A stretch of DNA of 64,000 bases, taken from an uncultured Pseudomonadales bacterium (lineage in GTDB: Bacteria; Patescibacteriota; Microgenomatia; UBA1400; UBA12108). This document shows positions 1,916 to 38,777 of the stretch, piece after piece. The position numbers and the translations under genes were made by a program. The stretch spans positions 425 through 64,424 of the forward strand of contig CAYGFS010000002.1 in assembly GCA_964349305.1 (NCBI GenBank), written 5' to 3'. The notes under the pieces are model-generated. The model saw only the letters and a program-made list of their open reading frames with translations. It was not told the origin of the DNA and did no database searches. Each line of letters starts with the position of its first letter. Positions within the stretch are counted from its first letter, which is position 1.

Positions 1916-4168
1916 GTGGCGATGGATTCCAAGTTTGAACATCAAAAAGTAGAAAAACAGATTTACGAAGCTTGGGAGAAAAGTGGGGTGTTTGCGCCTG
2001 ACCCCAAAGCTAAAGGCAAACCATTTACTATTGTCCTCCCCCCGCCCAATGCCTCTGGCAAAATGCACATGGGCAACGTGCTGATGATTGCGATCGAAGA
2101 CCTCATGATCCGCTACCACCGCATGAAAGGCGATCCCACACTTTGGATCCCGGGGACTGATCACGCAGGATTTGAGACCCAAATCACGTATGAGCGCGAG
2201 CTGAAAAAACAAGGAAAGTCTCGGTTTGAGTTTGATAGACAAACTCTGTACCAGAATATTTGGGAGTTTGTACAAAACAATAAGAACGTGATTGAAGGGC
2301 AGATTAAACAGATGGGAGCTTCGGTGGATTGGAGCCGCTATACTTTTACCCTAGATCCTCAAGTAGTTTCAACGGTGTATGGGACGTTTGCGCGGATGCA
2401 CAAAGAAGGTCTGGTATACCGCGATAATTATTTGGTGAACTATTGCCCCAAGTGTGGGACAACATTTGCTGACCTAGAAGTACTACATGAAGAGAGAATC
2501 GGAAAATTGTATTATGTGAAATATGCGGGCGTCTCGGGGGGAGACGGAATAGTTGTAGCCACAACGCGTCCTGAGACGATCATGCTCGACACTCATATCG
2601 CGGTCAACCCGAAGGATAAAAAGCGGGCTAAATATGTTGGGAAAAAAGTGATTAACCCATTGACTTTGGCACCAATGGAGATCATTGCGGATGATTTTGT
2701 TGACGCCAAATTTGGGACGGGTTTTGTCAAACTGACTCCTGCCCACGACAAGAATGATTACGAGGCTGGTAAGAAACACAATCTCCCCTTCATCGTAGGC
2801 ATCGGTATGGATGGCAAGATGACGGACGCCGCGGGGAAATACCAGGGTAAAAGCATCTTTACTGCCCGCAAAGAAGTGGTAGAAGAATTGCATGCACTAG
2901 GAGCCATCGAAAAAATAAATGAAGAATATGCTCAGTCGGTAGCCATATGTTATAAGGGCGGACACGATATCGAGCCCATGATCCTCCCCAATTGGTTTGT
3001 GAGGGTGGAGACACTAAAAAAACCAGCACTTGAGGCGGTGACGTCGGGTAAAGTGAAAATCTACCCCAAATGGAGAGAGGTGACCTATACCAAATGGATG
3101 GAAGAGATGCATGACTGGCCAATTAGCCGACAGGTATCGTGGGGAATCGCGATCCCTGTGTGGTATAAGGTTGGAGAGTCAGCCAATCAGAGTATCAGAA
3201 TTACGTTCCTAACTAAAGATAAAGCGGTGGTGGCTGGAACAATCGGTGAACTATTAAAGCAGTATAGTTTCGAAGAAATTAAGGGTGGATTACAAACACT
3301 TTTAGCGCCAAAAGAGGCACAGGGTCTAGTGAGTGCTGAGTGCCCTGGAGGTGGATATTTGCAGGAAACAGACACTTTTGATACTTGGTTCTCCAGCGGA
3401 CAATGGCCACTGGTGACCCTTAATTACCCTGACAGTGACGACTTTAAAAAATTCTACCCCACGTCGGTGCTCGAGACAGGGTGGGAAATAATCCGGCCGT
3501 GGGTGAGCCGAATGATCATGTTTGGGATTTACCTCACAGGCAAGCCACCATTTGAATATGTCTATCTCCATGGATTGGTTCGTGCCGCTGACGGGCGCAA
3601 AATGAGTAAATCGCTCGGCAATGTGATCAATCCAGATGAATACATGGAGCAGTATGGGGTCGATGCACTGCGGATGGGACTGATTGCAGGGACTGCGACG
3701 GGTAAAGACTTTTCGTTCCCCAAAGATAAAATCGTGGGATACCGCAACTTTGGCAACAAACTGTGGAACATGGCACGGTTTTTCTTGCTTATGCAAGAAA
3801 AAAGCGGAATCACAAATCTCAAATTCTCAAATTCTCAAATTGAGGGACTAACCGAGAGTGATAAAGATATTTTGGAAAAATTGAATGAAACGATTACGAG
3901 TGTGGACGACTTGCTGTCCAAGTTCCGTTTTGCTGAGGCAGCCGATTCGATTTATCACTTTATGTGGGACGAAGTGGCCGCGAAATATCTGGAAGAAATA
4001 AAGAGTCGTGAGGATCTAGGAGTAGCGCTCTGTGTGCTCCGACACATCATTTTGACTGGTCTAAAACTACTCCATCCCTTTATGCCGTTTGTAACGGAGG
4101 CGATTTGGAAAGAAATCAATCCTGATGACGGGATGTTGATTGTAGCCGAGTGGCCTAAAGCAAATTAA
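1916..4168 (+). CDS. valS: valine--tRNA ligase, class I (short form, 750 aa)
   Basis: N-terminal PPPNASGKMHMGN (ValRS-type PPPN...HMGH signature). KMSKSLGN motif. CP1 editing-domain-like insert. Start is GTG 1916 or ATG 1922. Carries an in-frame (CAAATTCT)n repeat at 3811-3846 translated as ITNLKFSNSQIEGL. Confidence 0.85.
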   Translation: MAMDSKFEHQKVEKQIYEAWEKSGVFAPDPKAKGKPFTIVLPPPNASGKMHMGNVLMIAIEDLMIRYHRMKGDPTLWIPGTDHAGFETQITYERELKKQGKSRFEFDRQTLYQNIWEFVQNNKNVIEGQIKQMGASVDWSRYTFTLDPQVVSTVYGTFARMHKEGLVYRDNYLVNYCPKCGTTFADLEVLHEERIGKLYYVKYAGVSGGDGIVVATTRPETIMLDTHIAVNPKDKKRAKYVGKKVINPLTLAPMEIIADDFVDAKFGTGFVKLTPAHDKNDYEAGKKHNLPFIVGIGMDGKMTDAAGKYQGKSIFTARKEVVEELHALGAIEKINEEYAQSVAICYKGGHDIEPMILPNWFVRVETLKKPALEAVTSGKVKIYPKWREVTYTKWMEEMHDWPISRQVSWGIAIPVWYKVGESANQSIRITFLTKDKAVVAGTIGELLKQYSFEEIKGGLQTLLAPKEAQGLVSAECPGGGYLQETDTFDTWFSSGQWPLVTLNYPDSDDFKKFYPTSVLETGWEIIRPWVSRMIMFGIYLTGKPPFEYVYLHGLVRAADGRKMSKSLGNVINPDEYMEQYGVDALRMGLIAGTATGKDFSFPKDKIVGYRNFGNKLWNMARFFLLMQEKSGITNLKFSNSQIEGLTESDKDILEKLNETITSVDDLLSKFRFAEAADSIYHFMWDEVAAKYLEEIKSREDLGVALCVLRHIILTGLKLLHPFMPFVTEAIWKEINPDDGMLIVAEWPKAN

Positions 4169-17521: not shown

Positions 17522-17546
17522 AGCCTGCGAGGACAGTCCTCGCAGG
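17522..17546. repeat. perfect palindrome AGCCTGCGAGGACAGTCCTCGCAGG (10-bp stem, 5-nt loop), copy 1
   Basis: Identical 25-mer recurs at 18117-18141. The GAGGACWGTCCTC core recurs at 28619-28636 and 29097-29163. Confidence 0.85.
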
Positions 17547-17610
17547 TTACTCGCAGGTTAAATGTGTTGGTTGGATCTGGGATGGTTGTGGTTGCGAGTC
17601 TTGCCACTTG

Positions 17611-18116: not shown

Positions 18117-18141
18117 AGCCTGCGAGGACAGTCCTCGCAGG
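18117..18141. repeat. perfect palindrome AGCCTGCGAGGACAGTCCTCGCAGG, copy 2
   Basis: Identical to 17522-17546. Together they bracket the GNAT gene. Confidence 0.85.
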
Positions 18142-18155
18142 CTTCTGTGAATATA

Positions 18156-21617: not shown

Positions 21618-21998
21618 TCAACTTCTCTCCCCAAACATGAGATGATAACCATTACAATCCTGGATAGTAAACTCCTGGGAATCGTAGTTGGTGGAATGGA
21701 GGGATTGAACCACTTTTACCATATCTTTAACTCTCCCCCACTCCGAGCGAATGTCGTCAACTTCTAGATATAAAACGAGACTACCTCCCATTTTTACTTT
21801 AGAAAGCTCTGGTATTTCTTTGGCAAAGTCATGTCTGGAGAAGAGCATTATCTCCACATTGCCTCGCTTGATGCGAGCGAAGGTGGGAGCACTAGACTCT
21901 GGAGAAATAAAAACCACCTCAAAACCCAACGTGGTTTTGTACCACGCGAGAGTTTTTGGAAGATCTTCGACGAGTAGTTCTGGAGTAAGAGACAACAT
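21618..21998 (-). CDS. VOC/glyoxalase-family protein
   Basis: Sequence ...DLPKTLAWYKTTLGFEVVF...NGYHLMFGE matches the VOC fold pattern. Confidence 0.55.
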   Translation of the reverse strand: MLSLTPELLVEDLPKTLAWYKTTLGFEVVFISPESSAPTFARIKRGNVEIMLFSRHDFAKEIPELSKVKMGGSLVLYLEVDDIRSEWGRVKDMVKVVQSLHSTNYDSQEFTIQDCNGYHLMFGERS

Positions 21999-22038
21999 GG
22001 TGTTAACTATACGCTGGTTCTGGTTGTATACTCAAGAA

Positions 22039-22524
22039 ATGAAAAAGAGTACGGGTTTTTTAGAGAGTTTAGAGAAATATAGCTGGAAAGCGATAGGGCG
22101 CAGTCCCCTGCCCCAGTACTGGCCGTGGATAGGAGTAGCTCTGGTAATAATGATTATCCTGGCATCAGTAGTAAATAAGCCAGGCAGCGTGGTAGGAGCG
22201 GAAAGTGTGAGAGAAATCATTGAGTTGGCTGCGGGGAGAGGAGATTATCAAACAGCAAGAGATTTATTAAACCATTACACCAATAAACCAATGAACAATT
22301 TGGTACTGGGGGCGGAGAGTGAGCTGGAAGACAAGGTTTATCCCGAGCGGGTCGTGGAGAGAAGAATTGCAGAACTTGAAACCAAGTTAGAGGAATATCC
22401 GGAAAACAAAGAGGTTTATTTGATGCTGTCGAGTCTATACGGCCAATTGGGATACTCTGATACTGCTAGCGAATATCGTGAAAAGGCTAGGATTTTGGAT
22501 CCGAATGGAGTGGAATTTAAGTAA
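22039..22524 (+). CDS. membrane-anchored TPR-like repeat protein
   Basis: N-terminal TM (WPWIGVALVIMIILASVV). C-terminal TPR-like helices (...EVYLMLSSLYGQLGYSDTASEYREKARILDP). Internal ATG 22039 chosen, because the 5' part of the listed ORF is antisense to the VOC gene. Confidence 0.45.
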   Translation: MKKSTGFLESLEKYSWKAIGRSPLPQYWPWIGVALVIMIILASVVNKPGSVVGAESVREIIELAAGRGDYQTARDLLNHYTNKPMNNLVLGAESELEDKVYPERVVERRIAELETKLEEYPENKEVYLMLSSLYGQLGYSDTASEYREKARILDPNGVEFK

Positions 22525-23327: not shown

Positions 23328-26081
23328 CTACTTGGCAAACTTTACCGTTACCCTCCGATCGGTATCGTTGACCATGTTAAATTTGAGCTGCTGGGGAGCG
23401 AGATCGGCGCTCGGGGAGATGATGGTGGGACGCAAATAAAGCGGATAATTGAGGTAGACGGTCAAGCTATCTTTGGAGGAAGTGCCGGGTTGTTTCTGCC
23501 AATACCAGGTGTAGAGAGTTTCGCTTTCCTGAGGGAGTTGGGGGGTGGCGTAATTAACTTCGAGTACTATATTGCTGCTGACGGGAACGGTGAGGAGATA
23601 GCTGACGACCACCCGGTTGTGCTGCGAACTGATTTCGTAATCTTTGGCTGCCAAGACAACGCCTCCAACTTTGACCTCCGAAATAGTGGCGCCAAGGGGT
23701 AAATAGAGACGGCTAAAATTTTTGTAGGCGCCTGACGGCCAGGCGGTAGAAGTAGAAGTATTCTGATAATTGACCCGGAGGGCGTGGCTAACGGAGAGGT
23801 TTTTTTCAAAAGTGATGATCTCTTCGATGTCGCGCTTGATGTAATAGTTGGCTTTGTTCACCCCAAAATTGCTATCAACGATCATGGCGTAGTCTTTGTG
23901 GCAGTTGCCCTGAGCGGGACAAGGAAAGTCGCTTAACTGGCCATTCCAACCAAGGGTTTCAAAAACGTGATTGGCGCTCTCGTTGAGAAGCGAAATGAGA
24001 GTGTCTTTTTGCTCGACAGAGGTAGTGAGTGCCCGGATCATTTTGAGACTATCCGCAGAGTTCCGGGTGGGAAGGGCGGCAAAAAGAGTGTTGGCCACGG
24101 AGCTCAAAAATTCTTTTTTCTGAGTACTGCCGGGGAAAAAGTTGACCTCGGCGTGAAACTGGGCGCGAGAGTAGAGGTTCTCGGCGGTGATGGTTTCGTT
24201 GTAGTCAGCCACCTCGAGTGGGCCCGTGGCACCCAGGAGCGAAACGAGAGTGTTGACGTTGACGGCAATTGTGCCATCCAGGTCTTGGTTGAGCGATTTT
24301 TTGATAAACCACTCGGCTCTCCTGGCGCTCGTGGGAAAATCAGGATCAAAATTGGAATCACGAAGATACCAATTGGCCTCGCCCAAGATGTCTTTGATCG
24401 GGGTGGGTGGCTCAACGTGTCCTTTGAGCTGACCATCCGCGTCGTAGACGTCAAAAATGGGCATATCGTAGAGTTTGCCGTTTTCGAAACTGAGAATGGC
24501 GAGTGAACCAATAAACCCCCCGGTGGCGCGCAACTCCATATTGTTTTGGAAAAGGACGGCGTATTTGCGCCGGCCGCCAAGCCCAATAACCTCAGGGGTG
24601 GTGGCCAGAATGGCTTTGGCCGTGATGACGGAGCGTTTGAGTCCCGATAATTCTGACTTGGCGGCAACGTAACCCGCATGATATTTGGCTGGGATGACAC
24701 TAGGAATTGTGTCGGGCAAGGAGCCGTCGAGGAGGGAGAGTTTTTGATAAAGCTCCTCGGATTCCAGGCGACTACGACTAATGGTTTGGGCAATGTCGGC
24801 ACTGCCGGTACCAAAAATGTAGTGAGCCAAGTCGCTCGTGGTCTGACTGAGCTGGTCGGCGACAGTAAAGGCAGTCAAGGCCTGTTTATAAGCATCTAAA
24901 AGCTGGCTAATTTCGATAACGGTGATCTTGGAACCGATACCGGGTAGTGAAGTAAGAGCTAGCCAATTGGCTTGGAGATAAGTGACGGAAAATTGATTAA
25001 TCGGGCTACGGAGTGGTAGTTCATTGTTTTGCAGGGCGGAATAGATCCGGCGCAAAGAGAGGGCGGCAACTGTCCCGGTAAAAGCGAGGGTTCCCAGGTA
25101 AAGTGCGAGGGCAATGATGAGCCCGCGGCCAACAATGGTTTTGGGCCGGAGAGTCAGTGGTTTGGGCCGGCGAGGACGAGGGAGTGGGAAGCTCAGCTTC
25201 GGACGGCGAGATTCGAGTGGAACGAAAACGGGACCAGCTTTTTTGACCAGAGGAGTCAATTTTTTGAGTGGAGGAAGCTCGGGAGTTACGACGGGGTCTG
25301 GCCTTACCGCCTTGGCTACAGCGGGCTGGGTGGGCGGCGCCGCCTTGATGTGGGTCTGGAGGTATTTGTGTAAATTATCTTCGACTTGTCCGACTAGCTG
25401 ATAATCGATTTGACTAAGCGCTGATTGATAAATATCTCCGTCAAAAATAGGCGCCTCACTCCCCTGTTCGGGAGCGAACTCTAGGCTGACTTTAAACGGC
25501 AGACTGGTACGGAAAGTATAGGCAAGATTGAGGAGCGAAATACCCTCCGGGTTGCCAAGGTGAATCTTGAGACTGTTGCCGCTAGAGGGAAGAAGTGTGT
25601 GACCTACTAAAAGGTGGCTGAGATCCCCCTCTCCTAGCAAACTAATTTCTTCCAGCCCATCTCCTGGGATAGTAATTTTCTGTTCGAGCTGAACTTTGTC
25701 GACCCAAGTCTTTAACAGTTTGGAGTCGTACTCCCCTGCCCCGATGTAATCGGAATACAGTAAATATTTGTAAACGGGGAGACTACTGGCTGGCAAAGAC
25801 ATGTTTTCGTGAATAGCTAAAACGAGGCGTGATTCACCAGACTGAACGAGGGTTTTGATCAGTGAATTAAAGATCGGATTTAGTGAGTCGGGAAAAACGA
25901 GGAGATAGTCTAGATCGTGGGACTGATGAAACTGATTAATCGCTTCGAGGCCCTCGGGAACAATGGCCTGAATGCCGGTGAGGAGAAATTCTTGGACAAG
26001 ATTCTCAACAAGTGACGGCGTGCCGCCAAAAATGACCGCCCCCTGCCCTCTGGTTTCAATCGTGAACGCACTTGACCTCAT
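23328..26081 (-). CDS. large membrane-anchored protein (917 aa): cytoplasmic N-domain, Pro-rich linker, one TM, ~570-aa extracytoplasmic C-domain
   Basis: Pro-rich segment PPTQPAVAKAVRPDPVVTPELPPLKKLTPL..., then TM GLIIALALYLGTLAFTGTVAALSL. No catalytic motif recognised. Confidence 0.6.
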   Translation of the reverse strand: MRSSAFTIETRGQGAVIFGGTPSLVENLVQEFLLTGIQAIVPEGLEAINQFHQSHDLDYLLVFPDSLNPIFNSLIKTLVQSGESRLVLAIHENMSLPASSLPVYKYLLYSDYIGAGEYDSKLLKTWVDKVQLEQKITIPGDGLEEISLLGEGDLSHLLVGHTLLPSSGNSLKIHLGNPEGISLLNLAYTFRTSLPFKVSLEFAPEQGSEAPIFDGDIYQSALSQIDYQLVGQVEDNLHKYLQTHIKAAPPTQPAVAKAVRPDPVVTPELPPLKKLTPLVKKAGPVFVPLESRRPKLSFPLPRPRRPKPLTLRPKTIVGRGLIIALALYLGTLAFTGTVAALSLRRIYSALQNNELPLRSPINQFSVTYLQANWLALTSLPGIGSKITVIEISQLLDAYKQALTAFTVADQLSQTTSDLAHYIFGTGSADIAQTISRSRLESEELYQKLSLLDGSLPDTIPSVIPAKYHAGYVAAKSELSGLKRSVITAKAILATTPEVIGLGGRRKYAVLFQNNMELRATGGFIGSLAILSFENGKLYDMPIFDVYDADGQLKGHVEPPTPIKDILGEANWYLRDSNFDPDFPTSARRAEWFIKKSLNQDLDGTIAVNVNTLVSLLGATGPLEVADYNETITAENLYSRAQFHAEVNFFPGSTQKKEFLSSVANTLFAALPTRNSADSLKMIRALTTSVEQKDTLISLLNESANHVFETLGWNGQLSDFPCPAQGNCHKDYAMIVDSNFGVNKANYYIKRDIEEIITFEKNLSVSHALRVNYQNTSTSTAWPSGAYKNFSRLYLPLGATISEVKVGGVVLAAKDYEISSQHNRVVVSYLLTVPVSSNIVLEVNYATPQLPQESETLYTWYWQKQPGTSSKDSLTVYLNYPLYLRPTIISPSADLAPQQLKFNMVNDTDRRVTVKFAK

Positions 26082-26332: not shown

Positions 26333-26770
26333 TTAGTTTTGCGCGTCTAGGGCTTCGTTAACTAGAGCGTCCGCTGGCGAGTTGCCCTCGCGATATGTGT
26401 GCTCGATGGACCACTGGGGAAGTTTAGCCAGGAGTCCCCTCACCGCTTGATATTTAGGAAGTAGTCCGGGATTTTTGACTTTAAAGAGACCCTTGATTTG
26501 GTTGACAATAAGGAGAGAGTCCATTTTGATAAGCAATTCTGCTGTTGGGTGGTGCTCAACAACCCAACTGACACCGGCGAGGAGCCCTTCGTATTCCGCC
26601 ACATTGTTGGTAGTGATGCCTAAATAATTACCGCATTTTTCCAGAATCATTCCCGCACCAGGCGTAATATCTTGGATAACGTATCCGTAGGCAGCGGGGC
26701 CCGGATTACCGCGCGAGCCGCCGTCGGTGTTTAAGAGCAACTTTTTAATCACAAATCTTAAATTCTCCAA
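26333..26770 (-). CDS. rnhA: ribonuclease HI
   Basis: DGGSRGNPGPAAYG (RNase H DxG...G motif). Downstream D/E catalytic residues (EYEGLL..., ...GNSPADALVNEA). The first ~10 codons are encoded by a repeat copy, so the true start may be internal. Confidence 0.75.
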   Translation of the reverse strand: MENLRFVIKKLLLNTDGGSRGNPGPAAYGYVIQDITPGAGMILEKCGNYLGITTNNVAEYEGLLAGVSWVVEHHPTAELLIKMDSLLIVNQIKGLFKVKNPGLLPKYQAVRGLLAKLPQWSIEHTYREGNSPADALVNEALDAQN

Positions 26771-26805
26771 TTCTCAAATAATTCTTTGATTCTCAAATTT
26801 ATTAT
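26752..26805. repeat. (CAAATTCT)n octamer-repeat element, degenerate copy
   Basis: AAATTCTCCAATTCTCAAATAATTCTTTGATTCTCAAATT at the rnhA start/flippase stop junction. Confidence 0.6.
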
Positions 26806-28030
26806 TTGAAAAGTATAGCAGAGCAAGAAAGATAAATAATTCGGTCAACCCAGTGTTGACGGCCGCAGCGGGGGCACCAAAACCTGGAACAAATACGAGG
26901 TTAAGTCCAACATTGAAGAGGGCGGCCAGGACATATATGCCCAAGACAACTTTGTCGCGCCCCCCTGCGATTAACCCCCACATGAGGGGGGCGGTGACAT
27001 AAAAGAAGGGGAGGGCAAAGGAGAGAATTTTTAATACTTCAATGGATATGGTGAGCCCGGGTTTCACCAGGCTGACAAGAGGCGCAATAAACCATAAAAT
27101 GACCGCGACAACCACGCCGATGCCGGCCATCGACCAGGCGGTGCGGGAAATGAGAGATGATTGGGGGTTGGTTTTGGAAGACTGAAGAAAAATCGGATAA
27201 ATAGAGTTCATGGCAAAAACGGGGAGAACCAGAATTACGTCAAAAATGCGATAAGCAAAGCCGTATTGCCCCACCTCGCTGGAAGCGCGAAAAACTCCGA
27301 GCACAACGGTGTCAAACTTGCTGGCCAAAACCGAGGCGATAAGAATAAGCCCAAGTGTTAGAGAGCGACGAAGGAGGGGGAGGACAAATTTCAAATCATA
27401 AATTCTCAAATTCTCAAATTGGGATCGAGGCAGTAATAGTAGAGAAGATATTGCCATGGCCAAATAGCCGGCGGTGTTGGCGAACACAAGATTGGGGATG
27501 GTGGGGGAGTGAGAAAGGAAATAGAGAGTGAGGATGGTAGCGAGGAGTGAGCCTATGACGACAGAAATAGTGGATTTCCAGTAGGACAGGTTGTACTGGA
27601 ACCAAGCGTTGGTGGAGGTATAGATGCCCTGGAACATGATGGCCAGGCTGCCGAGCCAAAAAATGGATTTGACTTGCGGTGAATATCCACCTGGGAGGCG
27701 AATAATTATGAGGTTGAGCACAATAATTGCCAGGAGGGAGAGGACAAAGCGGGCAAGGAGGATGTGCGACAGATTGTGCTGCATTTGAGCGGGCGACTTG
27801 GCGGAGCGCAACCCCTCTGCGTTGAGTCCAAAGTCAATGGCGGTGAAGCCAACAGCAACCAATATGAGGATTTTGGTCAGGTCACCATAAAGATCGAGTC
27901 CCGCTAGGCGAATGGTGAAGTAGGTGGTGAGCAGGGTGAGGCCGGCGCCAAAAAATTTGGCGACTAGCTGGGCAAATGTGTTACTGGCGATGGTTTTGAA
28001 CATGAGAGTATTGTATCGGCTAATCAGCAA
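26774..28030 (-). CDS. polysaccharide-biosynthesis/oligosaccharide flippase (Wzx/MOP-like)
   Basis: 12-TM protein with Wzx-like N-terminus (...TIASNTFAQLVAKFFGAGLTLLTTYFTIRLAGLDLYGD...). Mid-gene in-frame repeat insertion is translated as RSQFENLRIYDLK. Confidence 0.55.
   Translation of the reverse strand: MLISRYNTLMFKTIASNTFAQLVAKFFGAGLTLLTTYFTIRLAGLDLYGDLTKILILVAVGFTAIDFGLNAEGLRSAKSPAQMQHNLSHILLARFVLSLLAIIVLNLIIIRLPGGYSPQVKSIFWLGSLAIMFQGIYTSTNAWFQYNLSYWKSTISVVIGSLLATILTLYFLSHSPTIPNLVFANTAGYLAMAISSLLLLPRSQFENLRIYDLKFVLPLLRRSLTLGLILIASVLASKFDTVVLGVFRASSEVGQYGFAYRIFDVILVLPVFAMNSIYPIFLQSSKTNPQSSLISRTAWSMAGIGVVVAVILWFIAPLVSLVKPGLTISIEVLKILSFALPFFYVTAPLMWGLIAGGRDKVVLGIYVLAALFNVGLNLVFVPGFGAPAAAVNTGLTELFIFLALLYFSNNKFENQRII
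27385..27421. repeat. (CAAATTCT)n octamer-repeat element inside the flippase CDS
   Basis: TCAAATCATAAATTCTCAAATTCTCAAATTG. Confidence 0.8.
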
Positions 28031-28051
28031 ATCGGTTAGTCGGTAAGTCGG

Positions 28052-29398
28052 CTATTCAGATTTTCGGATTGTAAAAAAATATAACACAATGATAAATAAG
28101 CCTTGAGGAGAGGTAAGGAGATAGTGGTCGAAGAGAAGAAGGGGGAGTAGGGGAACAATTAATCTCAAATCATAAATTCTCAAATTCTCAAATTGAGAGC
28201 GCAGGGTATACAAAATCGCGAGGAGTCCGAAAATACCAAACCAGGAGAGAAACAGTGTGAACGAATTGTGGTCGGGCTGGAGGAGGCGCATTTCAGGTGA
28301 GATAGTGGGGTAGGTAGAGATACTAGCTTGGGCGCCGGTGCCAAAAACGGGGAAATGAGAAATTGCCTTCAAGGACACCCCTTGAAGGTCGAGGCGCTCT
28401 GAGATAGAGAGATCAGAGCGAGGGGGAGAGAGGAGGGGGGGGTAAATAAACCAATAAACCAATAAACCAATAAAAAAATATAAAGCTCTGGATTTGAAAT
28501 TTTTGAAAAAATAAAAGGGAATAATGATGCCAAAAAGAGATAGGGCAGCGGCGCGGGACTGGGTAAGAAAAATTAGGGAAGCAGTGAGTGTGGTGGAGAG
28601 CCAAAGGAGCCGAGTCGTCGAGGACTGTCCTCGCAGGCGGAGGAGAATCAACAAAACAACAACTGACCATCCAGCGAGGACGTTGGGGTGACCAAAGGTA
28701 CCATAAGCTCTCAGTACCACTTCGTGTATAAACGAGCCAAGGGCGACGGCTGGAGAGCCCACAGATACACTGCGCTCGCCAAGGTAGTACATGAGGCCTC
28801 CAACTGAGTGGCCGAGAAATACTTGGATGAGAGAGAGCACGAGCTGGAAGAGGAGTGAGAGGGTCAAAATTAATCTCAAATCATAAATTCTCAAATTCTC
28901 AAATTGAGTAGCCACTAAGGTTCCGATCTGTCTTTCGCTACGCTGCAGACCGCTTAAAGATCGGAACCCGGGGAACAGGGCGACAACAAAGAATAGATAC
29001 AGTAAAAAATGAAGTGACCAGGAGAGGGTGGAGAGGGGGTTGTCAGAATAGAGGAGATTGGTCAGGAGGATGGGGGTCAGGGTACCCATGAGGACTGTCC
29101 TTTCGGTTGCCACCGAGCCCTTCTCGGCTTGCAGCCGGGAATTCCTTCTAAGGACAGTCCTCTGGAGCAGGTCAGACCCTAAAAACAGAATAACTAAAAT
29201 GTCTAAGAAATAAATAGTGGGGGAGAGATAATCGATGCGGATGCCATAGACTAGGCTGGTGAGCGGCCAAAAATGAAAACCCAACTGGGTGGCGGAGAAG
29301 AAAATAATCAGGCCGACGAGAAAATTAGGCGGATTTAATTGAGATAAATAAGCGCCTATCTTGCCCAAAGCCCTCGGAATAGCTAGTGAATTCTGCAT
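28052..29398 (-). CDS. O-antigen ligase/polymerase (Wzy_C)-like membrane protein carrying multiple in-frame repeat insertions
   Basis: Wzy_C-like motifs FLTQSRAAALSL and QPDHNSFTLFLSWFGIFGLL. Start taken at ATG 29398, which still overlaps jag by ~74 nt. The ORF reads through at least five repeat elements without a stop. Confidence 0.45.
   Translation of the reverse strand: MQNSLAIPRALGKIGAYLSQLNPPNFLVGLIIFFSATQLGFHFWPLTSLVYGIRIDYLSPTIYFLDILVILFLGSDLLQRTVLRRNSRLQAEKGSVATERTVLMGTLTPILLTNLLYSDNPLSTLSWSLHFLLYLFFVVALFPGFRSLSGLQRSERQIGTLVATQFENLRIYDLRLILTLSLLFQLVLSLIQVFLGHSVGGLMYYLGERSVSVGSPAVALGSFIHEVVLRAYGTFGHPNVLAGWSVVVLLILLRLRGQSSTTRLLWLSTTLTASLIFLTQSRAAALSLFGIIIPFYFFKNFKSRALYFFIGLLVYWFIYPPLLSPPRSDLSISERLDLQGVSLKAISHFPVFGTGAQASISTYPTISPEMRLLQPDHNSFTLFLSWFGIFGLLAILYTLRSQFENLRIYDLRLIVPLLPLLLFDHYLLTSPQGLFIIVLYFFTIRKSE
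28157..28197. repeat. (CAAATTCT)n octamer-repeat element
   Basis: AATTAATCTCAAATCATAAATTCTCAAATTCTCAAATTGAG. Confidence 0.85.
28866..28907. repeat. (CAAATTCT)n octamer-repeat element
   Basis: Near-identical to 28157-28197. Confidence 0.85.
28917..28975. repeat. ~50-bp hairpin element GGTTCCGATCT-N27-AGATCGGAACC, copy 2 (inside the O-antigen-ligase-like ORF)
   Basis: Matches 22529-22586 with 3 mismatches. Confidence 0.8.
29097..29163. repeat. ~67-bp compound palindrome GAGGACTGTCCT ... AGGACAGTCCTC with inner CCGAG/CTCGG hairpin
   Basis: 12-bp terminal arms are reverse complements. Shares its core with the GNAT-flanking palindromes. In-frame in the ligase-like ORF (translated ...QRTVLRR...ERTVLMG). 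Confidence 0.7.
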
Positions 29399-29777
29399 CG
29401 TCCTTGAGCATGAGGTGGACTTGGCGCCTTTCGGTGGCAGAAAGAGGAGGGAGGACACAAGCGCCACCAATTTCTCTGGCCTGGTTTTTGGCGTTTTCAA
29501 CCATAGATTCAAGCGTGGTCAAGCGGCGGGCGCGGTAACCGGCGACGTCGAGGAGAACGTGGCGATGGACTTCACCCTGGTTGAGCATGAGAGAAATGAT
29601 CAACTGGAGTGAGTCGAGGGTGGAGGCAAAGCGGCCGATCAAGCGGCCGGCTTCCAGCTCGTCGATACCCACGGTAATAGTAATGAGCTCTTCGGTTTCT
29701 GCGACTTTGATTTGGTCGGGGTTGATGTCAAAAAGCTTGAGCAGGGTCTCGATTTTGACTAGATCAATTGGCTGCAT
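29325..29777 (-). CDS. jag: Jag/KhpB RNA-binding protein (KH + R3H)
   Basis: KH-like ...GRLIGRFASTLDSLQLI.... R3H-like ...ATERRQVHLMLKDDAEFTSYSEG. Conserved position downstream of yidC. Confidence 0.75.
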   Translation of the reverse strand: MQPIDLVKIETLLKLFDINPDQIKVAETEELITITVGIDELEAGRLIGRFASTLDSLQLIISLMLNQGEVHRHVLLDVAGYRARRLTTLESMVENAKNQAREIGGACVLPPLSATERRQVHLMLKDDAEFTSYSEGFGQDRRLFISIKSA

Positions 29778-29780
29778 AGG

Positions 29781-30518
29781 TTATTTCCCCTTCTTCAATA
29801 TTTTAAATTTATATGCATAAGTGAGCAGGGCGCCGGGGCCGGAAACAATCAATTGCTGCACCAGGGAAAAAGCGGTGGTGATGACCCAGTAGAGAGCAAG
29901 ACCAGAGGGGAACTGGATGGAGAATATGACGGTCATAATGGGCATCATAAAGACCATTTGCTGCTGCATGGTGGTGGCCATCTCGGCGACGTCTTGCTTT
30001 TCCTCTTTGGTGCCAGGCCGTTTCTCGGGTTGATTTTCAACGGCGGGGAGGATGGTGAGCGACATGATGAGCTGAAGTACACCGGCGAGGACGGGAAGAA
30101 TATAGGTGGTATCTTTGGCTTTGAGGTCCCAGAGGAAGAAGAGGGAATTAACCTCTCCCATCCCGTTGCCCCCCAGAGTACTCATAAACACCTGATAGAG
30201 CGCAATCAAAACAACAAATTGGGCAATAAAAGGCAAGCAGCCGGCGGCGGGGTTAACATTGTGAGTTTTGTAAAACTCCATTTGTTTTTGCTGGAAAAGC
30301 TTGGCGTCGTGGCTGTGTTTTTTCTTCAGTGCATCTAGCTCGGGTTTGAGAAGAGCCATTTTTTTGGCGGATTTGAGCTGAGGAAGTGTGAAGGGGATCA
30401 ATACGCCGCGAACAACTAGAGTTAAGAGAATAATGGCGAATCCTAAGTTTTGACCAGTGAGCTGATATAGCCACAAGAGCGAGTTGAGGATGGGTTGATA
30501 AATGTAGGTATGATACAT
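29781..30518 (-). CDS. yidC: membrane protein insertase YidC (short form, 245 aa)
   Basis: Conserved YidC core ...LVVRGVLIPFTLPQLKSAKKMALLKPELDALKKK... and the rnpA-yidD-yidC-jag synteny. Confidence 0.85.
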   Translation of the reverse strand: MYHTYIYQPILNSLLWLYQLTGQNLGFAIILLTLVVRGVLIPFTLPQLKSAKKMALLKPELDALKKKHSHDAKLFQQKQMEFYKTHNVNPAAGCLPFIAQFVVLIALYQVFMSTLGGNGMGEVNSLFFLWDLKAKDTTYILPVLAGVLQLIMSLTILPAVENQPEKRPGTKEEKQDVAEMATTMQQQMVFMMPIMTVIFSIQFPSGLALYWVITTAFSLVQQLIVSGPGALLTYAYKFKILKKGK

Positions 30519-30564
30519 AATAAAGTTTTCCGGTTTTGCAGTATTCCAGTTTTCCAGTAGAAAA

Positions 30565-30783
30565 CTAAGGCACGGGGTCGTAACCGCCCGCGGACCATGG
30601 ATGACATTTTAACAGTCTTTGGCCAGATAACCAAGCTCCCTTGAGTAATCCGTGTTTTTCGAAAGCTTGCCTCGCATAAAGTGAACAAGTGGGGGAATAG
30701 CGGCAATGACCATGTGACAGGCCGAGATTGGCGGCCATGGCCTTGAGATAGGGTGAGAGACGACGATAAAGAGGGTACAACAT
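30565..30783 (-). CDS. yidD: membrane protein insertion efficiency factor YidD
   Basis: ...[44 protein letters not shown] is the canonical YidD sequence. Confidence 0.8.
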
Positions 30784-30826
30784 AAATTCTCAAATCCTAA
30801 ATTCTCAAATCCTCAAATTTTAGGGT
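30781..30826. repeat. (CAAATTCT)n octamer-repeat element, variant
   Basis: CATAAATTCTCAAATCCTAAATTCTCAAATCCTCAAATTTTAG. Encodes the last ~10 aa of rnpA (QTLKFEDLRI) and abuts the yidD start. Confidence 0.75.
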
Positions 30827-31132
30827 TTGAAGTTCGGAGAGAATGAGATCGTCGGAGGACTTACCCTTGAGGAGGGCAATGGGCTTGAGCATAATAATAC
30901 AGTCGAGGTTTTTGCCTTTGAGTACTTTCCAGGCAGCGTCATAGACGAGGCGCTTGAAATGATTGCGTAGTACCGCGCGCTTGCTGACTTTGATGGGGAC
31001 AATAACGGAGAGGCGGGCGGGGGCGTGGGGGTCGGTCATAACCCGGAGATGGGGTGTGGCGATCTGTTTGGCGCGGGCGCGAAACACGAGAAACTGGGTG
31101 CGAGTGGGGAATTTATTGGACTGGGAAATCAT
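30797..31132 (-). CDS. rnpA: ribonuclease P protein component
   Basis: Basic 111-aa protein with the RnpA RNR-like motif (...KRAVLRNHFKRLV...) between rpmH and yidD. Confidence 0.75.
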   Translation of the reverse strand: MISQSNKFPTRTQFLVFRARAKQIATPHLRVMTDPHAPARLSVIVPIKVSKRAVLRNHFKRLVYDAAWKVLKGKNLDCIIMLKPIALLKGKSSDDLILSELQTLKFEDLRI

Positions 31133-31184
31133 ATGAGTATATTAAACCAATATACCAATTTATCATTAAACTATTTCAGGGAAA

Positions 31185-31319: not shown

Positions 31320-31414
31320 GATTTTTGTATTATAGCTGGTGAGTATGGATTTGTCACGGTGGGATGTAGTTGTGACCCATTGTGGGTTGTGGATAAAATG
31401 GGGATAATGTTGTC

Positions 31415-32770: not shown

Positions 32771-33004
32771 ATATGTGGATAAAGATGGGGATAAGGCGGT
32801 GGAGAAGCGCGGGAGAAGTATTTGGGCGAGTGGGGAAAAGTGGAAAGAAGAGAGTTGTCCCCAATAAGGATGAGTTGTCCACAAAGTTATCCACAGCGTT
32901 TTCCCCGCGCGTAGCAGAGATTTATCCGACAATCCACCGGCTCTACTACTATTACAATCTTTAATTAAGATATATTATTAACAGCAGTAAGGGGGCAACC
33001 TAAA
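32771..33004. promoter_or_regulatory. candidate oriC: DnaA-box cluster plus AT-rich unwinding tract in the dnaA-dnaN spacer
   Basis: TGTGGATAA at 32774-32782. TTGTCCACA at 32876-32884. TTATCCACA at 32887-32895. Weaker TTATCCGAC at 32922. Then the AT-rich tract CTACTACTATTACAATCTTTAATTAAGATATATTATTAAC. A further box TGTGGATAA at 31388-31396 lies upstream of dnaA. Confidence 0.6.
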
Positions 33005-34102: not shown

Positions 34103-34114
34103 GGTGGAAAAGCT

Positions 34115-34237
34115 TGTCGGGCGAAAATTTGTGAGCTCCGGTATTATTTTGGATAGAATACAAAACACTTACCTACTGACGTGTCGCGTATTTTGTTTAA
34201 AGGAAAAATAATAGTGTCGCCAAAATTTTACCCGACA
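34115..34237 (+). mobile_element. ~123-bp MITE-like element with ~16-bp terminal inverted repeats (copy 1)
   Basis: TTGTCGGGCGAAAATTT ... AAAATTTTACCCGACAA termini. About 95% identical to 61403-61526 in the same orientation. The internal sequence resembles a promoter (TTGTGA-N17-TAGAAT). Confidence 0.6.
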
Positions 34238-34249
34238 AATTTCTCATTT

Positions 34250-37200
34250 CTATTTTATGGGATCAGTAGTGGCTGGTTGTTGGAAAATCGGTCTCCCAGA
34301 CTGCTGTGCGTCTGGAGGCATTTCTCGGGTACTGTCATGCTCGATGTGCTGTGATTCGGTGGGTGCGGCGACAGTGGTCGCAATCGGTTCGACGGTGGGG
34401 GCGGCGGCGGGTTGAGGTGGGGTGAGAGCGGAGGCGCGGGACTGGCTGGCGACCAGCTTGTCGGCGAAGGCCCTTTGGTGGTCCAGAGTCTCCTGAGGGT
34501 TCGTGGTAATGAGACTGTGTTCTTCAGGTGAGGCGACTACTTTCATAGCCACGTGGTTTTGGCCGGCGAAGAAGAGGGCCTCGCCAACTTCGGCAGTCAG
34601 CAAGAGGTGGCGTTCTCCCTGGGAGAGGAAGAACGTGGTCGCGAGCTTTTCGATGGCGCTACTGCTTTGTTTCATGAGAACCTGGAGCGAAGAGTTGCTG
34701 ACGATAGCTTTACCGTGATCGCTCTTTAAGAAATCTTCCACGTCTTGAGTGATAGTGGTCAGGCCCAGGAAATATTTACGAGCCCGCTTGGCGATGCCAT
34801 AGAGGAAGGTGGCGGAGTCCTCGGATTTCATGAGATACCACGCCTCATCGACGACCAGGAGACGGCGCTTGAGATCCCTTTTGACCTTGGTCCAAATGTA
34901 GTCGAGAATGATAAAAATGGCAGTGGGGCGGAGCTCGTCGGTCAAGTTTTTGATACCAAAGACGGTGAGCTGATTGCCAAAATTGACATTGGACTTTTGG
35001 GAGAAAATTCCCTGGAAAGAACCCTTAACATATTTTTCGAGCCGGTCGGCCAGACCACGAGCAACTGCCTCTTCCATACCATTTAAGACCTTGTAGAGAT
35101 CTTCCATGAGCGGGGGCTCGAGCTTGTGGGTGGTGGCGTCGCGATTAATGCCTTTCATCTGGTAGGTCATAACCAGGGCGCGATCGAGGAGGGCTTCTTC
35201 TTGGGGATTCATGTCTCCCATCATAATTTTGAGGAGGGAATGGAGAGAAATAATTTTCATGGCCAGCTCGTTTTCGTCGGGCTCGGCCATTTGAGGAAGC
35301 TCAAAAGGATTGATGCGGTTGGGAGAACTAAAAGAGAAGTCAATATAAGTACCGCCGATGGCGTCGGAGAGTTTGCGATACTCGTCTTCGGGATCGATGA
35401 CGATGACTTCGGTGTCGAAAAGGAGGGAGCGCAAGATTTCCAGCTTGACCATATAAGAGTTGTGGACAAAAATCCCCCCTTGGCCAGCCAGGAAAACCTT
35501 GTTTTTAACCTGCAAATCATACACATATGGGTTGTTGTAGGGAACGAGAACTATAGAGGTGATGGGGTCCCAGATGATTTGACTATTGGCTAGTTGATTA
35601 AGATTGGACAAGACAGTGTCGGTCTCTAGAGGAATCTTTAGATTTAGTTTTTTTACTTGCTGGAGACAGGTCTTGATGTGTTTAGAGAGCTCTTTTGACG
35701 ATGGATTGTATTTCCCATTTTTAATATTTATAAAGTTTTGACCTGGTGAAATTTTGTAAGGTAGAAATATGGTTTCGTGGAGTTTTTTGAACAGTGGAGC
35801 AAGCCCAGGAATAAATTCAACATTGGTGTTTGCGGAGATATTTAGTGTGTCTTGGATAATTGTATTTAATTTACCTTGTTTACCCCCATGTACAAAAGAG
35901 ATGTTTTTAGCAAAATTTAGCAGGTTGTTTTGGCCCGAAATTGAGACTCTCCAATAGGGCTGCTTGATCATGGTCGAGTTGGAGGTCCTTTTTTGTGTGG
36001 GATGGATGCGTGCGTGAATATCAAAACGATTGAAAAGTAGACAGAGAGAGTTAATAAGTGATTTGGACTTTGAGACGGCGGTAACCTGTCTGGCCTCTAC
36101 TCCTCCATCTCCATCGAGATATCCGCCAATCATATTGGCAAGACATTGATCGTCGAGGTTAATGGCCCAGGAGGGGAATCGCTTAGTTGAAGCAGTGTGT
36201 CCAACCCCCATTGACTCAATGACGTGTTTAAAAATAGACGAACTAACTCTAATGTCGGTTGGAGTAATAAAATATGGGAAATTTATATCTTTTAATATAT
36301 TTTCTACCTTATCCCGAATTTCTTGATCTCTGTTTGTAATAATAACAACCGCTGCGGCAGTAGACCCTTCAGCGATATAGAGCCCAAGAAGCCAGGCTAG
36401 ATCTGGAGTAATAGTCAGGGTTGTTGGTAGAAGATGATTGGTGCTGTTTTGAATTTGTATTTGAGCTGTTTGGGGGAGTGGTGAACTAACTCTCGATTTT
36501 AATGAATCATAAAGAGCGATGGGGAAAGCTCTACCACCAAAATATTTTTCAGCGTAAGGGCCAGTATATCCAGAGTTTTTTATCCAATCTTTAGCTCCGA
36601 CAATATGAACCCTCATGTCCTTTGCGAGAGCGTCTAATAAATTTAGAGTCGTCGGCTTTCCTTTAACCGGAATAGATCTTGCAATTGGCATATATTCCCC
36701 AACTTTGGCGTTTTTGGCAATGATAGCTTTGATTGCTCCATTCTCGAGTGTTAAGATCTGGTGATCTGGAGTGACAGTTATGGATCTACCAGACTTTGTG
36801 GTGATATGAAGAAGTTCTTTATAGGGATTGAGTTTACGCGCAACTACTTCAACCTTGCTCCACTGGGGTACTAGGTCCGCGTTGTAACTCAGAACTTCTA
36901 ACTCAGGATTTGTAATAGCTTCGCTTTCACCCACCCTGGTTATTGATTTTGAATCTTTGAAGATTTGGTCGACGTATTGACCAATCTTTATCTCAGAAAC
37001 AGTCTCTTTTTGTCGGATCAGGGTGGGCTCGTCGTATCCTAAGCATTTACCGGAACCCGACTTGGCGAAGACCACCATATTGGCATTTTCGAGCGTGAAA
37101 CGATCAAAAACGACGAGCGAGTCATTGTGTTCGTTGATGCCATACATGAGACCCTCATTGGCGGTGAGCTCAGAGCTGGTGAAGGGGAAGGTGGTGGCAA

Positions 37201-38585: not shown

Positions 38586-38777
38586 TATTAGTATAACAGG
38601 GAAATATATGTTGTAACCCTGGTTTCCATTTTTTGTTTTTGTGAAGCTCGCTTCAGGAAAAATATCCTCGGGATTTGATTACTCGTCATTTTTCTTGATA
38701 ATGCCCTGCCTGCGCAGGCAGGCTCGACTCTACAATGCACAAAAAACATAAACCAGGATTACTTTACTGATCATTTA
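38586..38777. repeat. repeated intergenic module (promoter-like element + ...TTTTTTGTTTTTGTGAAGCTCGCTTCAGGAAAA... + ...CTACAATGCACAAAAAACATAAACCAGGATT)
   Basis: Shares about 110 bp in two blocks with 52664-52861. This copy has an extra 18-bp perfect palindrome CCTGCCTGCGCAGGCAGG. Confidence 0.75.

Follow-up and report, generated by a model that had tools for sequence, protein, structure and literature searches.

Rickettsia palindromic elements (RPEs) and in-frame MITEs are short, non-autonomous, multi-copy repeats in unrelated housekeeping ORFs, in which the reading frame is kept and the gene remains intact. RPEs are ~100-150 bp long and palindromic, and each family encodes its own specific peptide. 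The KOPS/SRS motifs of FtsK/SpoIIIE, Chi and the AIMS octamers are single, usually G-rich motifs along the replichores, mostly intragenic and read by a known translocase or nuclease, with a typical density profile and an orientation that changes over at origin and terminus; they are conserved as DNA in related species while individual sites turn over. Uptake sequences (USS/DUS) are non-repetitive stretches of ~10-30 nt, present about once per kb and in both orientations, and we know of none that is strand-polar.

Three published systems are among the closest. Frequent in-frame fusions have their precedent in RPEs (review PMC10969869). Tandem heptamers of the TAACTGA/STRR type are arrays of two to six direct units of 7-8 nt, with many arrays per genome in phylogenetically scattered bacteria (MacGregor 2015, PMC4679880). 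In SPDIR, ectopic single strands anneal at microhomologies and become incorporated as the DNA replicates, presumably in the manner of Okazaki fragments (bioRxiv 10.1101/2023.11.22.568220).

Copies of the element and their host genes

The window, that is, the whole 64-kb stretch of DNA analyzed here, carries an octamer-based array for which a sequence-only reading had claimed at least six copies with a shared core and one orientation. All six were found, on the plus strand and within a few bases of where that reading had placed them (Table 1), and they are genuine and far above chance. A 37-mer core occurs without mismatch at 28161-28197 and at 28872-28908, with two mismatches at 27387 and with three at 3808; at ≤3 mismatches, this amounts to 4 matches in the window versus 0 in 100 shuffles. 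The 12-mer AAATTCTCAAAT at ≤1 mismatch is found 14 times in the window (1.0 expected), 13 times on the plus strand. Both copies located at gene junctions are 80-85% variants of the repeat. The element is a G-free array of three to five units of 7-8 nt each, 37-45 nt in total, with the consensus AATCTCAAATCATAAATTCTCAAATTCTCAAATTGRG, and contains only ~2.6 perfect 8-nt units. It begins with AATCTCAAAT and finishes with AAATTGRG. Its density is ~1 per 10 kb, and five of the copies lie inside 4.1 kb of the window.

Table 1. Array copies in the window, with the intervals returned by repeat detection (family D2)
Feature	Position	Strand	Repeat detection	Context
Copy 1	3808..3844	+	3801-3841	within valS (1916-4168, +), sense frame 2; encodes ITNLKFSNSQIE, residues ~631-643
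Copy 2, diverged, two sub-arrays	26746..26805 (26740-26805 at widest)	+	26740-26780	flippase/rnhA junction
Copy 3	27380..27423	+	27380-27420	antisense in MOP flippase gene (26774-28030, -); encodes SQFENLRIYDLKF, central loop
Copy 4	28154..28197	+	28154-28194	antisense in Wzy_C gene; encodes SQFENLRIYDLRLI directly before last hydrophobic segment
Copy 5	28865..28908	+	28865-28905	antisense in same Wzy_C gene as copy 4; encodes TQFENLRIYDLRLI; adjoins 73-nt hairpin repeat 28901-28973
Copy 6, variant	30779..30826	+	30779-30819	rnpA/yidD junction
Sister family (AATAAACC)n	28441..28482	+		within Wzy_C gene, antisense, GLLVYWFIY; no length change vs orthologs
AATAAACC, further copy	22262-22311	+
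AATAAACC, further copy	24502-24517	+
AATAAACC, further copy	31137-31178	+
AATAAACC, further copy	55802-55851	+

The hosts in the window are valS, a MOP flippase gene, a gene for an O-antigen-ligase-like Wzy_C protein (28052-29398/29512, minus strand), rnpA/yidD and rnhA. Pfam matches and syntenic orthologs identify them as real, conserved genes rather than non-functional fragments. The translations proposed earlier are correct: valS yields ITNLKFSNSQIEGL, the flippase gene SQFENLRIYDLKF, and the Wzy_C ORF T/SQFENLRIYDLRLI at two places. The wider claim that the copies are read in frame by host ORFs holds for the valS copy and the three internal copies 3-5, while the remaining two are gene-junction elements. 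There, the assertion that no insertion brings a stop fails, as the TGA of the flippase gene (26774-26776) and the TAG of rnpA (30797-30799) both sit within the junction copies. Copy 2 extends the flippase C-terminus by ~8 aa (NNKFENQRII) and at the same time forms the 5′ leader of rnhA. The N-terminus ENLRFVIKK ascribed to rnhA turned out to be a product of choosing the longest ORF: the orthologs begin with MKLLLN(T/C)DGG, matching a GTG at 26752-26750, which probably is the rnhA start, and the adjacent repeat copy is most likely 5′-UTR. Besides the rnpA stop codon, copy 6 holds the last nine rnpA codons (TLKFEDLRI) and the ATG of yidD (30781-30783). The junction arrays end exactly at start codons, and the element misleads ORF calling at such sites.

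The element is readable in three of the six frames, which are exactly the stop-free ones (two sense, one antisense); the other three contain TAA or TGA. One DNA sequence is translated into (S/T)N(H/P)KFSNSQI, SQI(I/S)NSQILKL or, in antisense direction, SQFENLRIYDLR. In an AlphaFold model of ValRS, the repeat-encoded segment belongs to a surface loop (631-646) between the helices 603-630 and 647-668.

The element family is found in a clade of Woesebacteria/Microgenomates within the CPR, with conserved non-repeat ends (AATCTCAAATCAT...TTGRG). About 22 of the ~27-30 CPR sites lie within ORFs, and relatives add a 5′-3′ exonuclease, a GT4 glycosyltransferase, RecF, FemAB and MnmA to the list of in-frame hosts. 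Of the internal copies, ~19/22 are in sense orientation, an excess to be expected from two open sense frames versus one antisense. Two to three copies within 0.15-2.3 kb also occur in five loci of relatives (L119, L120, L121, L112 and L053), and in L137 a copy is located immediately upstream of valS. The element also interrupts assemblies, as in a public contig from the same organism that terminates inside the valS copy.

Searches for associated features gave negative results. No terminal inverted repeats and no hairpin were found in the element, which is predicted to be unstructured as ssDNA (folding z -0.8 to -1.4, no different from shuffles). The whole window yielded no Rfam match at gathering thresholds, and none of its 49 ORFs scanned against Pfam encodes a transposase, RT or HUH/Y1 protein. 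Counts of promoters and terminators at 26.3-31.5 kb were not above shuffles, one weak 9/12 promoter-like match overlapping copy 6. The viral contigs scanned contained 0 matches to the element, and our literature search on in-frame repeats in CPR/Patescibacteria and on strand-biased tandem repeats in general found nothing relevant.

Turnover, nucleotide conservation and strand polarity

We compared the window with orthologous loci of relatives, three of which (L129, L019 and L004) cover the flippase and ligase genes. A clean insertion, as expected from the sequence-only reading, was seen at two sites, the N-terminal half of the ligase and rnpA/yidD. Where the window has copy 5 and the adjoining hairpin, the L129 ortholog shows a clean gap of 25 aa, and in L129 rnpA and yidD overlap (ATGTATAA) without an array, leaving the window with a net gain of 36 nt. 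At valS (+1 aa) and in the flippase (+2 aa), in contrast, a variable loop was overwritten in a nearly length-neutral manner. The valS orthologs without the repeat have (K/G)EI(A/G)WYEP(E) at this loop, 1 aa shorter. Flippase copy 3 is also present in L019 and has decayed in L129 (ENWRVYDLR), and L004 has 13 unrelated residues of similar length. In both L129 and L004, copy 4 occupies the identical site with identical boundaries; the array of L019 at this position is another one, shorter and with 7-nt units. At the flippase/rnhA junction, L129 shows an ATGA overlap without an array, L019 an CAAATTCT array and L004 a (TTGTAAA)n array. Presence is patchy: of the five window copies in the shared block, three are missing from L129, where the flippase copy has eroded to background level. 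No target-site duplication was found in the filled-versus-empty comparisons between the window and L129. Orthologous copies are equal in length, with no differences in unit number, and phase variation was rejected on this ground.

The same loops and junctions hold other 7-8-nt arrays in sister lineages; the valS loop carries four different ones and the flippase/rnhA junction two, and many further short-period arrays exist in these genomes. The AATAAACC family lies on the same strand as the main element in 8/8 cases. Fuzzy matches to the AATTTAC heptamer family picked up other arrays as well and thus yielded no polarity for it, and the TCTAGAA/TCTAGAT family says nothing on orientation because its unit is nearly palindromic.

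For nucleotide conservation we relied on valS, the only site at which this test is free of ascertainment bias: its orthologs were fetched by protein homology, independent of the repeat, whereas the pairs window-L129 and window-L004 (ligase) and window-L019 (flippase) were retrieved by an exact element match. In five valS orthologs, the 36-nt element is identical at 33-36 of 36 positions (92-100%), compared with 70-77% nucleotide identity in the rest of the gene. Where the amino acid is identical, the same codon is used in 9/11 to 12/12 cases within the element versus a fraction of 0.45-0.52 elsewhere in the gene. All five orthologs retain the site-specific variant ACAAATCTC, and sub-variants of the element recur across genomes. 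Judged from these alignments, the nucleotides of the element, synonymous positions included, appear to be kept while the host gene diverges.

The shared orientation noted earlier proved to be the most informative feature; it tracks the G-rich strand rather than gene direction. Irrespective of the latter, every copy (43/43, from 29/29 loci) is found on the G-rich strand, including the five window sites in minus-strand genes; the CAAATTCT strand of the element is always the G-rich strand of the chromosome. Among 107 non-CPR control loci, 51 have the array on the G-rich strand. In the window, GC skew at third codon positions is +0.28 in plus-strand and -0.38 in minus-strand genes, so that the skew is a property of the strand and not of the gene, and it shows no switch in the window, even at the DnaA-box clusters flanking dnaA. 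By the general rule for bacterial GC skew, the G-rich strand would be the leading strand. We therefore infer that the element is carried by the leading-strand sequence and hence by the lagging-strand template, GC skew being the sole link between polarity and replication.

Two simple explanations were rejected. Differential mutational decay cannot yield the polarity because the C residues of the element sit on the strand that is losing C. Origin-proximal clustering fails since, in relatives, the majority of loci with the element have no gene in common with the 64-kb window that contains dnaA.

Explanations for a strand-bound array in coding DNA

The strand rule, together with conservation at the DNA level, argues for a DNA signal that is tolerated by the proteins and not for a protein motif. 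We propose, tentatively and with a little less than even confidence, a replication-polar element that acts in cis at the DNA level and is maintained by selection, with the peptides as by-products. Such a signal would follow a logic like that of KOPS, Chi or the AIMS octamers and might be read by a putative DNA-tracking or ssDNA-binding machine. Within coding sequence, tolerance would be confined to the three frames free of stops, to variable surface loops and to junctions, where it would supply stop or start codons, and the encoded peptides would be passengers. The earlier suggestion that the peptides are "tolerated or selected" would then stand in its first half, as the hosts are undisrupted; we see no sign of peptide selection, given three peptides from one DNA and conserved synonymous sites. 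New copies may arise by short-patch copying at the replication fork, which fits the net insertions and equal-length loop overwriting better than cut-and-paste transposition does. A more specific version, which we regard as doubtful, is that the arrays are an unrecognized class of replication-polar signals in CPR, which would be recognized on the lagging-strand template (a clade-specific site for translocase, recombination or priming, for instance) and be written into and kept in essential genes by Okazaki-fragment-like short-patch replacement.

Some observations speak against a signal. No candidate reader protein was identified. The copies cluster locally, whereas known polar signals are single short motifs that are more evenly spread, and their presence is patchy between close relatives. 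The GC skew that ties polarity to replication runs past the DnaA-box clusters of the window without a switch. The similar behavior of several other 7-8-nt array families could mean a mutational process.

Such a process could be a selfish, function-less repeat copied at forks, in which short single strands derived from one copy, such as displaced Okazaki flaps, would anneal at microhomologies elsewhere on the exposed lagging-strand template and be built in like Okazaki fragments, as in SPDIR or oligo-type recombination. The outcome would be insertion or equal-length patch replacement, and polarity would perpetuate itself. This reading, which we consider unlikely, agrees with the equal-length overwriting at valS, flippase and AATAAACC sites beside net insertions, with strict polarity, local clustering, patchy presence and decay in L129, and with unrelated array families at the same hotspots (four at the valS loop, two at the flippase/rnhA junction). 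It is opposed by conservation: a neutral element should diverge like synonymous sites, but the valS copy shows 92-100% identity among five species; homogenization should erase site variants, but ACAAATCTC is kept at valS in all five; concerted evolution predicts genome-specific variants, but sub-variants are shared across genomes. SPDIR is moreover known only as a rare mutation in Acinetobacter. That the element is instead an RPE- or MITE-like mobile element with tolerated or selected peptide inserts, as held by the sequence-only reading, would account for in-frame copies across a wide range of unrelated housekeeping genes, for the two sites with a clean insertion and for the loop position in ValRS. 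We nevertheless judge it improbable, given the length of only 37-45 nt, the lack of terminal inverted repeats, target-site duplication and hairpin, a window without transposase, three different peptides from one DNA, conserved synonymous sites and length-neutral replacement at valS and flippase; strand polarity would be left unexplained.

An RNA-level role is likewise improbable. Here, a G-free, CA/U-rich mRNA tract would serve as translation-initiation or leader element or as protein site, in the manner of the tandem heptamers and octamers that directly precede start codons in Beggiatoaceae, Cyanobacteria and Bacteroidota. Arrays of the generic type (TTCTCAAA)n, present in >100 non-CPR genomes, are indeed intergenic, with an ORF start ≤60 nt downstream in 28/107 loci in sense versus 8/107 in antisense direction, the same layout as for TAACTGA repeats (MacGregor 2015, PMC4679880). 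The sense excess of internal CPR copies, the L137 copy just upstream of valS and the junction arrays finishing exactly at start codons point the same way. Most CPR copies, however, lie deep within ORFs, the strand rule is obeyed even at five window sites with the element antisense to the gene, the junction copies show the mRNA the opposite strand (UUUGAGAA), and the sense excess is expected from the open frames. Ordinary simple-sequence repeats from local slippage, possibly phase-variable contingency loci in surface-polysaccharide genes, would suit tandem 8-nt units (8 is not a multiple of 3), the two envelope hosts (flippase and Wzy_C protein) and the many other short-period arrays in these genomes. 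We consider this highly improbable: 37-mers are identical between unlinked sites and between species, unit number does not differ among orthologous copies, only ~2.6 units are perfect, the hosts include valS, rnpA/yidD, recF and mnmA, and strict polarity would again lack an explanation. Equally remote is a motif resembling DNA uptake sequences that would accumulate in the coding regions of these competence-dependent, reduced bacteria by way of biased uptake and recombination. Conservation across species, tolerant coding positions in particular frames, replacement of earlier sequence without length change and "dialect"-like array families in sister lineages would fit, but polarity of 43/43 copies is unlike known USS/DUS, the density is only ~1 per 10 kb, and the copies are clustered.

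If the proposed replication-polar signal is real, variable loops of housekeeping proteins would time and again be overwritten by a code at the DNA level. Should polarity and nucleotide conservation hold genome-wide, they would define a third mode of coexistence between small repeats and genes, neither an RPE-like palindrome nor a single KOPS/Chi-type octamer, in which an array reshapes protein loops and gene junctions through a DNA-strand constraint. It would also be a natural case of short-patch sequence replacement at the fork over evolutionary time and a handle on signals for chromosome replication and segregation in CPR, about which, to our knowledge, almost nothing is known.

Comparison with known systems

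The likeness to RPEs drawn by the sequence-only reading extends to in-frame tolerance, with the ValRS copy in a surface loop, and ends there: the element is not palindromic and has no hairpin, but is built from tandem 7-8-mers over 37-45 nt, can be translated in three frames across both strands, is strand-polar and sometimes length-neutral. IS200/IS605 or REP/RAYT derivatives share the replication orientation bias, but the element lacks their subterminal hairpins, and no HUH/Y1 gene was found in the 64-kb window. Simple-sequence contingency loci toggle the frame by unit-number polymorphism, which is not seen between orthologs here, where copies are equal in length. With SPDIR, the element shares the replacement of a stretch by an ectopic one of similar length and a proposed mechanism tied to the lagging-strand template at the fork; SPDIR, however, is a class of rare mutations seen in the laboratory and variable in sequence, and no conserved repeat family is known to have arisen from it. 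USS/DUS resemble it in above-background conservation in coding regions, restriction to tolerated frames and positions and length-neutral replacement, but the strict polarity of the element and its roughly tenfold lower density set it apart. Arrays of the TAACTGA/STRR type are similar in architecture; they are overwhelmingly intergenic and oriented toward start codons a few to tens of nt away, whereas the CPR family is mostly intragenic, follows the chromosome strand and has conserved non-repeat ends. KOPS/SRS, Chi and AIMS share the 8-nt unit, the near-absolute bias tied to the compositional (replication) strand, the mostly intragenic location and DNA-level conservation with turnover of individual sites. 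From these single motifs, the element differs as a G-free, locally clustered array of three to five units, whose replication orientation is deduced from skew only.

Copies in the window and their setting

The six repeat copies claimed by the sequence-only reading were all found on the plus strand, near where it had placed them. The 37-mer core recurs unchanged at 28161-28197 and 28872-28908, and with two mismatches at 27387 and three at 3808, which makes four window matches at ≤3 mismatches compared with none in 100 shuffles. The other two copies (26746-26805 and 30779-30826) are variants at 80-85%. The 12-mer AAATTCTCAAAT occurs 14 times in the window at ≤1 mismatch (1.0 expected), and the element is a real finding. 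Tandem Repeats Finder assigned each window copy a period of 8 with 3.6-4.8 units. The element is G-free, and its consensus, AATCTCAAATCATAAATTCTCAAATTCTCAAATTG(A/G)G, is built of 7+7+8+8+7 nt units; folded as ssDNA, it does not differ from shuffled sequence (z -0.8 to -1.4).

Host genes were confirmed by Pfam. ValRS homologs at 62-82% identity bear Woesebacteria or Microgenomates names, and the source is a CPR bacterium of this type. The 49 window ORFs scanned included no transposase, reverse transcriptase or HUH protein, and an Rfam search of the window gave no match.

Positions of genes and repeats in the window
Feature	Position	Strand	Remark
ValRS	1916-4168	+	Pfam
RNase H	26333-26770	-	Pfam
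Polysacc_synt flippase	26774-28030	-	Pfam
Wzy_C protein	28052-29512	-	Pfam
Jag/KhpB, YidC, YidD, RnpA	29325-31132	-	Pfam
dnaA, dnaN	next after Jag/KhpB-RnpA block	+	
Sister family (AATAAACC)n	22262-22311, 24502-24517, 28441-28482, 31137-31178, 55802-55851	+	G-poor octamers
(AGTTTTCC)n array	30524-30558		before yidC
(TCGGTAAG)n array	28032-28051		before flippase
73-nt hairpin	28901-28973, 22514-22586		copies 82% identical; fold z -2.4/-3.2
30-nt palindrome	28613-28642, 17522-17551, 18117-18146		first in frame in Wzy_C gene
Third Wzy_C hairpin	29090-29170		16-aa gap in L129 ortholog
DnaA-box clusters	31388-31407, 32774-32895		either side of dnaA
VirB4/TraG-like P-loop ATPase	34250-37858	-	split by intein with LAGLIDADG domain
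Four tandem T4SS-pilin paralogs	52862-54929		
~150-nt intergenic segments	38614-38760, 52697-52818		94-95% identical
140-nt repeat	34106-34245, 61393-61532 (also 13111-13132)		89% identity; no Rfam match
Five TrmB-family HTH regulator paralogs	7517-8422, 15303-16082, 16079-17032, 18639-19436, 19918-20718		within 13 kb

Several other features of the window were recorded. The ATPase belongs to a T4SS-like block (~34-55 kb) that also holds a PrgI-like protein and the pilin paralogs. One of the two intergenic segments precedes the PrgI-like gene and the other the pilin cluster; they are probably a duplicated regulatory region. The 140-nt repeat combines a strong promoter-like TTGTGA-17-TAGAAT with a conserved ~100-nt segment downstream; one copy stands before a plus-strand gene and the other faces a minus-strand gene at its 3' end. 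The repeat could serve as a shared promoter/leader or encode a small RNA. TrmB genes recur beside valS in relatives.

Comparison with orthologs

Three syntenic relatives (L004, L019 and L129; ~66-74% nt identity) were compared with the window. In L129, rnpA and yidD overlap (ATGTATAA) and the array is absent, against which the window shows a net +36 nt; the element contains the last nine rnpA codons, the rnpA stop and the yidD ATG. The Wzy_C N-terminal copy, together with the adjoining 73-nt hairpin, corresponds to a clean 25-aa gap in L129. The C-terminal copy sits at one identical position, with identical boundaries, in the window, L129 and L004, and a different, shorter 7-nt array occupies this site in L019. 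The flippase copy is intact in L019 and decayed in L129 (ENWRVYDLR); L004 has 13 unrelated amino acids there, compared with 15 in the window. At the flippase/rnhA junction, L129 shows an ATGA overlap, the window and L019 a CAAATTCT array, and L004 a (TTGTAAA)n array. Because orthologous RNase H begins MKLLLN(T/C)DGG, the likeliest start of the window rnhA is GTG 26752-26750, which would make the repeat, previously read as the rnhA N-terminus, a leader. In comparisons free of ascertainment bias, turnover is evident: L129 lacks the element at three sites and has a decayed copy at one. Some copies were gained by insertion, others by replacing a stretch of nearly equal length.

At least six small repeats are interspersed in the Wzy_C gene, whose reading frame is nonetheless kept. 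Its 73-nt hairpin, its 30-nt palindrome and the third hairpin are all in frame, and the second copy of the 73-nt hairpin lies just past the stop of ORF 21751-22524. Octamer arrays also stand directly upstream of the minus-strand yidC and flippase start codons.

In an AlphaFold model of the window ValRS (mean pLDDT 85), helices 603-630 and 647-668 are joined by a loop of residues 631-646. Eleven valS orthologs share EKSG-ITNLKFSNSQ-MEGLTESD, and the majority, with EKxG-(K/G)EI(A/G)WYEP(E)-MEGLTESD, are just 1 aa shorter; judged from these alignments, the valS copy is a replaced variable loop and no clean indel. The proposal of in-frame insertions survives in part: copies are translated without frame loss and are clean insertions relative to L129 at the Wzy_C N-terminal and rnpA/yidD sites, but it does not extend to the replaced valS loop or to junction copies holding a stop and a start codon.

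Our first conservation comparison was ascertainment-biased because its loci came from exact element matches, and valS loci were therefore fetched by protein identity. Across five species, valS outside the element shows 70-77% nt identity and the same codon for identical amino acids in 45-52% of cases, while the 36-nt element is identical at 33-36/36 positions with same-codon counts of 9/11 to 12/12, indicating conservation at the nucleotide level. The site-specific ACAAATCTC variant is kept at valS in 5/5 species, which speaks against its being homogenised by other copies. Among homologs this loop otherwise varies extremely. Sister lineages fill it with different 7-8-nt arrays at roughly constant length: ATTAAAAC ATTAAACC AATTCACC ATTAAATC in L138, CCAATAAC CAATAACC in L139, (TACAATT)3 in L140 and (ATTCAAG)3 in L141. 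In a further relative, L144, valS has acquired a second CAAATTCT copy at another position. A ValRS from another public assembly (P0001), 100% identical to that of the window, is truncated at residue 637, within the repeat (window 3808-3844); since its contig stops inside the valS element, the repeat breaks assemblies.

In L138 it is the sister family, (AATAAACC)n, that fills the valS loop. This family lies on the strand of the CAAATTCT element in 8/8 cases, with 11/11 window matches on the plus strand. Its arrays are in frame in one plus- and two minus-strand genes and are present upstream of rnpA too; within the Wzy_C gene and ORF 21751-22524 they took the place of existing sequence with no gain in length. 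Many short-period arrays are present in these genomes.

Other genomes, reading frames and strand polarity

The exact 21-mer core AAATTCTCAAATTCTCAAATT was found at >117 loci (among them L001-L117) in a scan of one genome per species. The >117 genomes belong to distant phyla, chiefly Bacteroidota, with Acidobacteriota, Planctomycetota, Saprospiraceae and Thiotrichaceae also represented. The majority of the loci, in Bacteroidota, Saprospiraceae, Thiotrichaceae and other groups, hold generic (TTCTCAAA)n arrays. These are intergenic, with an ORF start ≤60 nt downstream in sense in 28/107 loci versus 8/107 antisense, and resemble in layout relative to start codons the TAACTGA heptamers described by MacGregor (PMC4679880). 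The CPR-type element, with the same ends, accounts for eight of the 21-mer loci and for 17 metagenome loci retrieved by a flank-specific pattern. At these loci it lies inside real genes: those for 5'-3' exonuclease, RecF, FemAB, a GT4 glycosyltransferase (where it falls in the linker between domains), MnmA (whose PRC-barrel domain exceeds the profile by 23 aa), a further class I tRNA synthetase, and others. Loops and junctions tolerate the element, as do three reading frames: one DNA sequence yields (S/T)N(H/P)KFSNSQI, SQI(I/S)NSQILKL and, antisense, SQFENLRIYDLR. The remaining three frames carry TAA or TGA, and only stop-free frames are seen, which argues that DNA and not a peptide defines the family.

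GC skew is positive across the whole window. At third codon positions it is +0.28 in plus- and -0.38 in minus-strand genes; since it flips sign with gene strand, the skew is a property of the strand and neither of transcription nor of coding. The CAAATTCT strand is the G-rich strand in every CPR locus (43/43 copies, 29/29 loci; 26/26 loci in an earlier count), a tally that takes in loci fetched via valS and thus chosen independently of the element, whereas 107 non-CPR control loci split 51/56 between strands. The discriminating cases are five window sites in minus-strand genes, where the element is antisense to the gene yet follows the skew. Faster decay of the opposite orientation is ruled out as the source of this polarity, because the element has C and no G on a C-depleted strand.

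By the usual GC skew of bacterial chromosomes, the G-rich strand would be the leading one and would have the sequence of the lagging-strand template. DnaA boxes, perfect or near-perfect, cluster on both flanks of dnaA, ahead of the gene and in the gap to dnaN, much as at an oriC. Yet the skew keeps its sign through both clusters and stays positive for >30 kb to each side; either replication starts at another place or bidirectional replication from the dnaA site does not set the skew.

Possible origins of the repeat and known relatives

The repeat is DNA-defined and strand-polar. We tentatively favor, at somewhat less than even confidence, a replication-oriented cis-acting signal with the peptides as passengers. 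The main rival, a function-less repeat copied at the fork via short-patch annealing, has a precedent in the SPDIR mutation class (bioRxiv 10.1101/2023.11.22.568220) and would explain replacement, clustering, hotspots and polarity. It leaves the synonymous-site conservation and the retained site-specific variant unexplained, however, and we consider it rather unlikely. An mRNA or leader element, a contingency locus and an uptake sequence rank lower, as does an RPE/MITE-like element.

The sequence-only reading had likened the copies to Rickettsia palindromic elements (RPE). They differ from RPE and MITE in palindrome, size and TIR/TSD, and share with RPE solely their in-frame tolerance. No description of the element was found in the literature on in-frame repeats or strand-biased tandem repeats; as far as this literature shows, it is a so far undescribed relative of in-frame small repeats and polar octamers.
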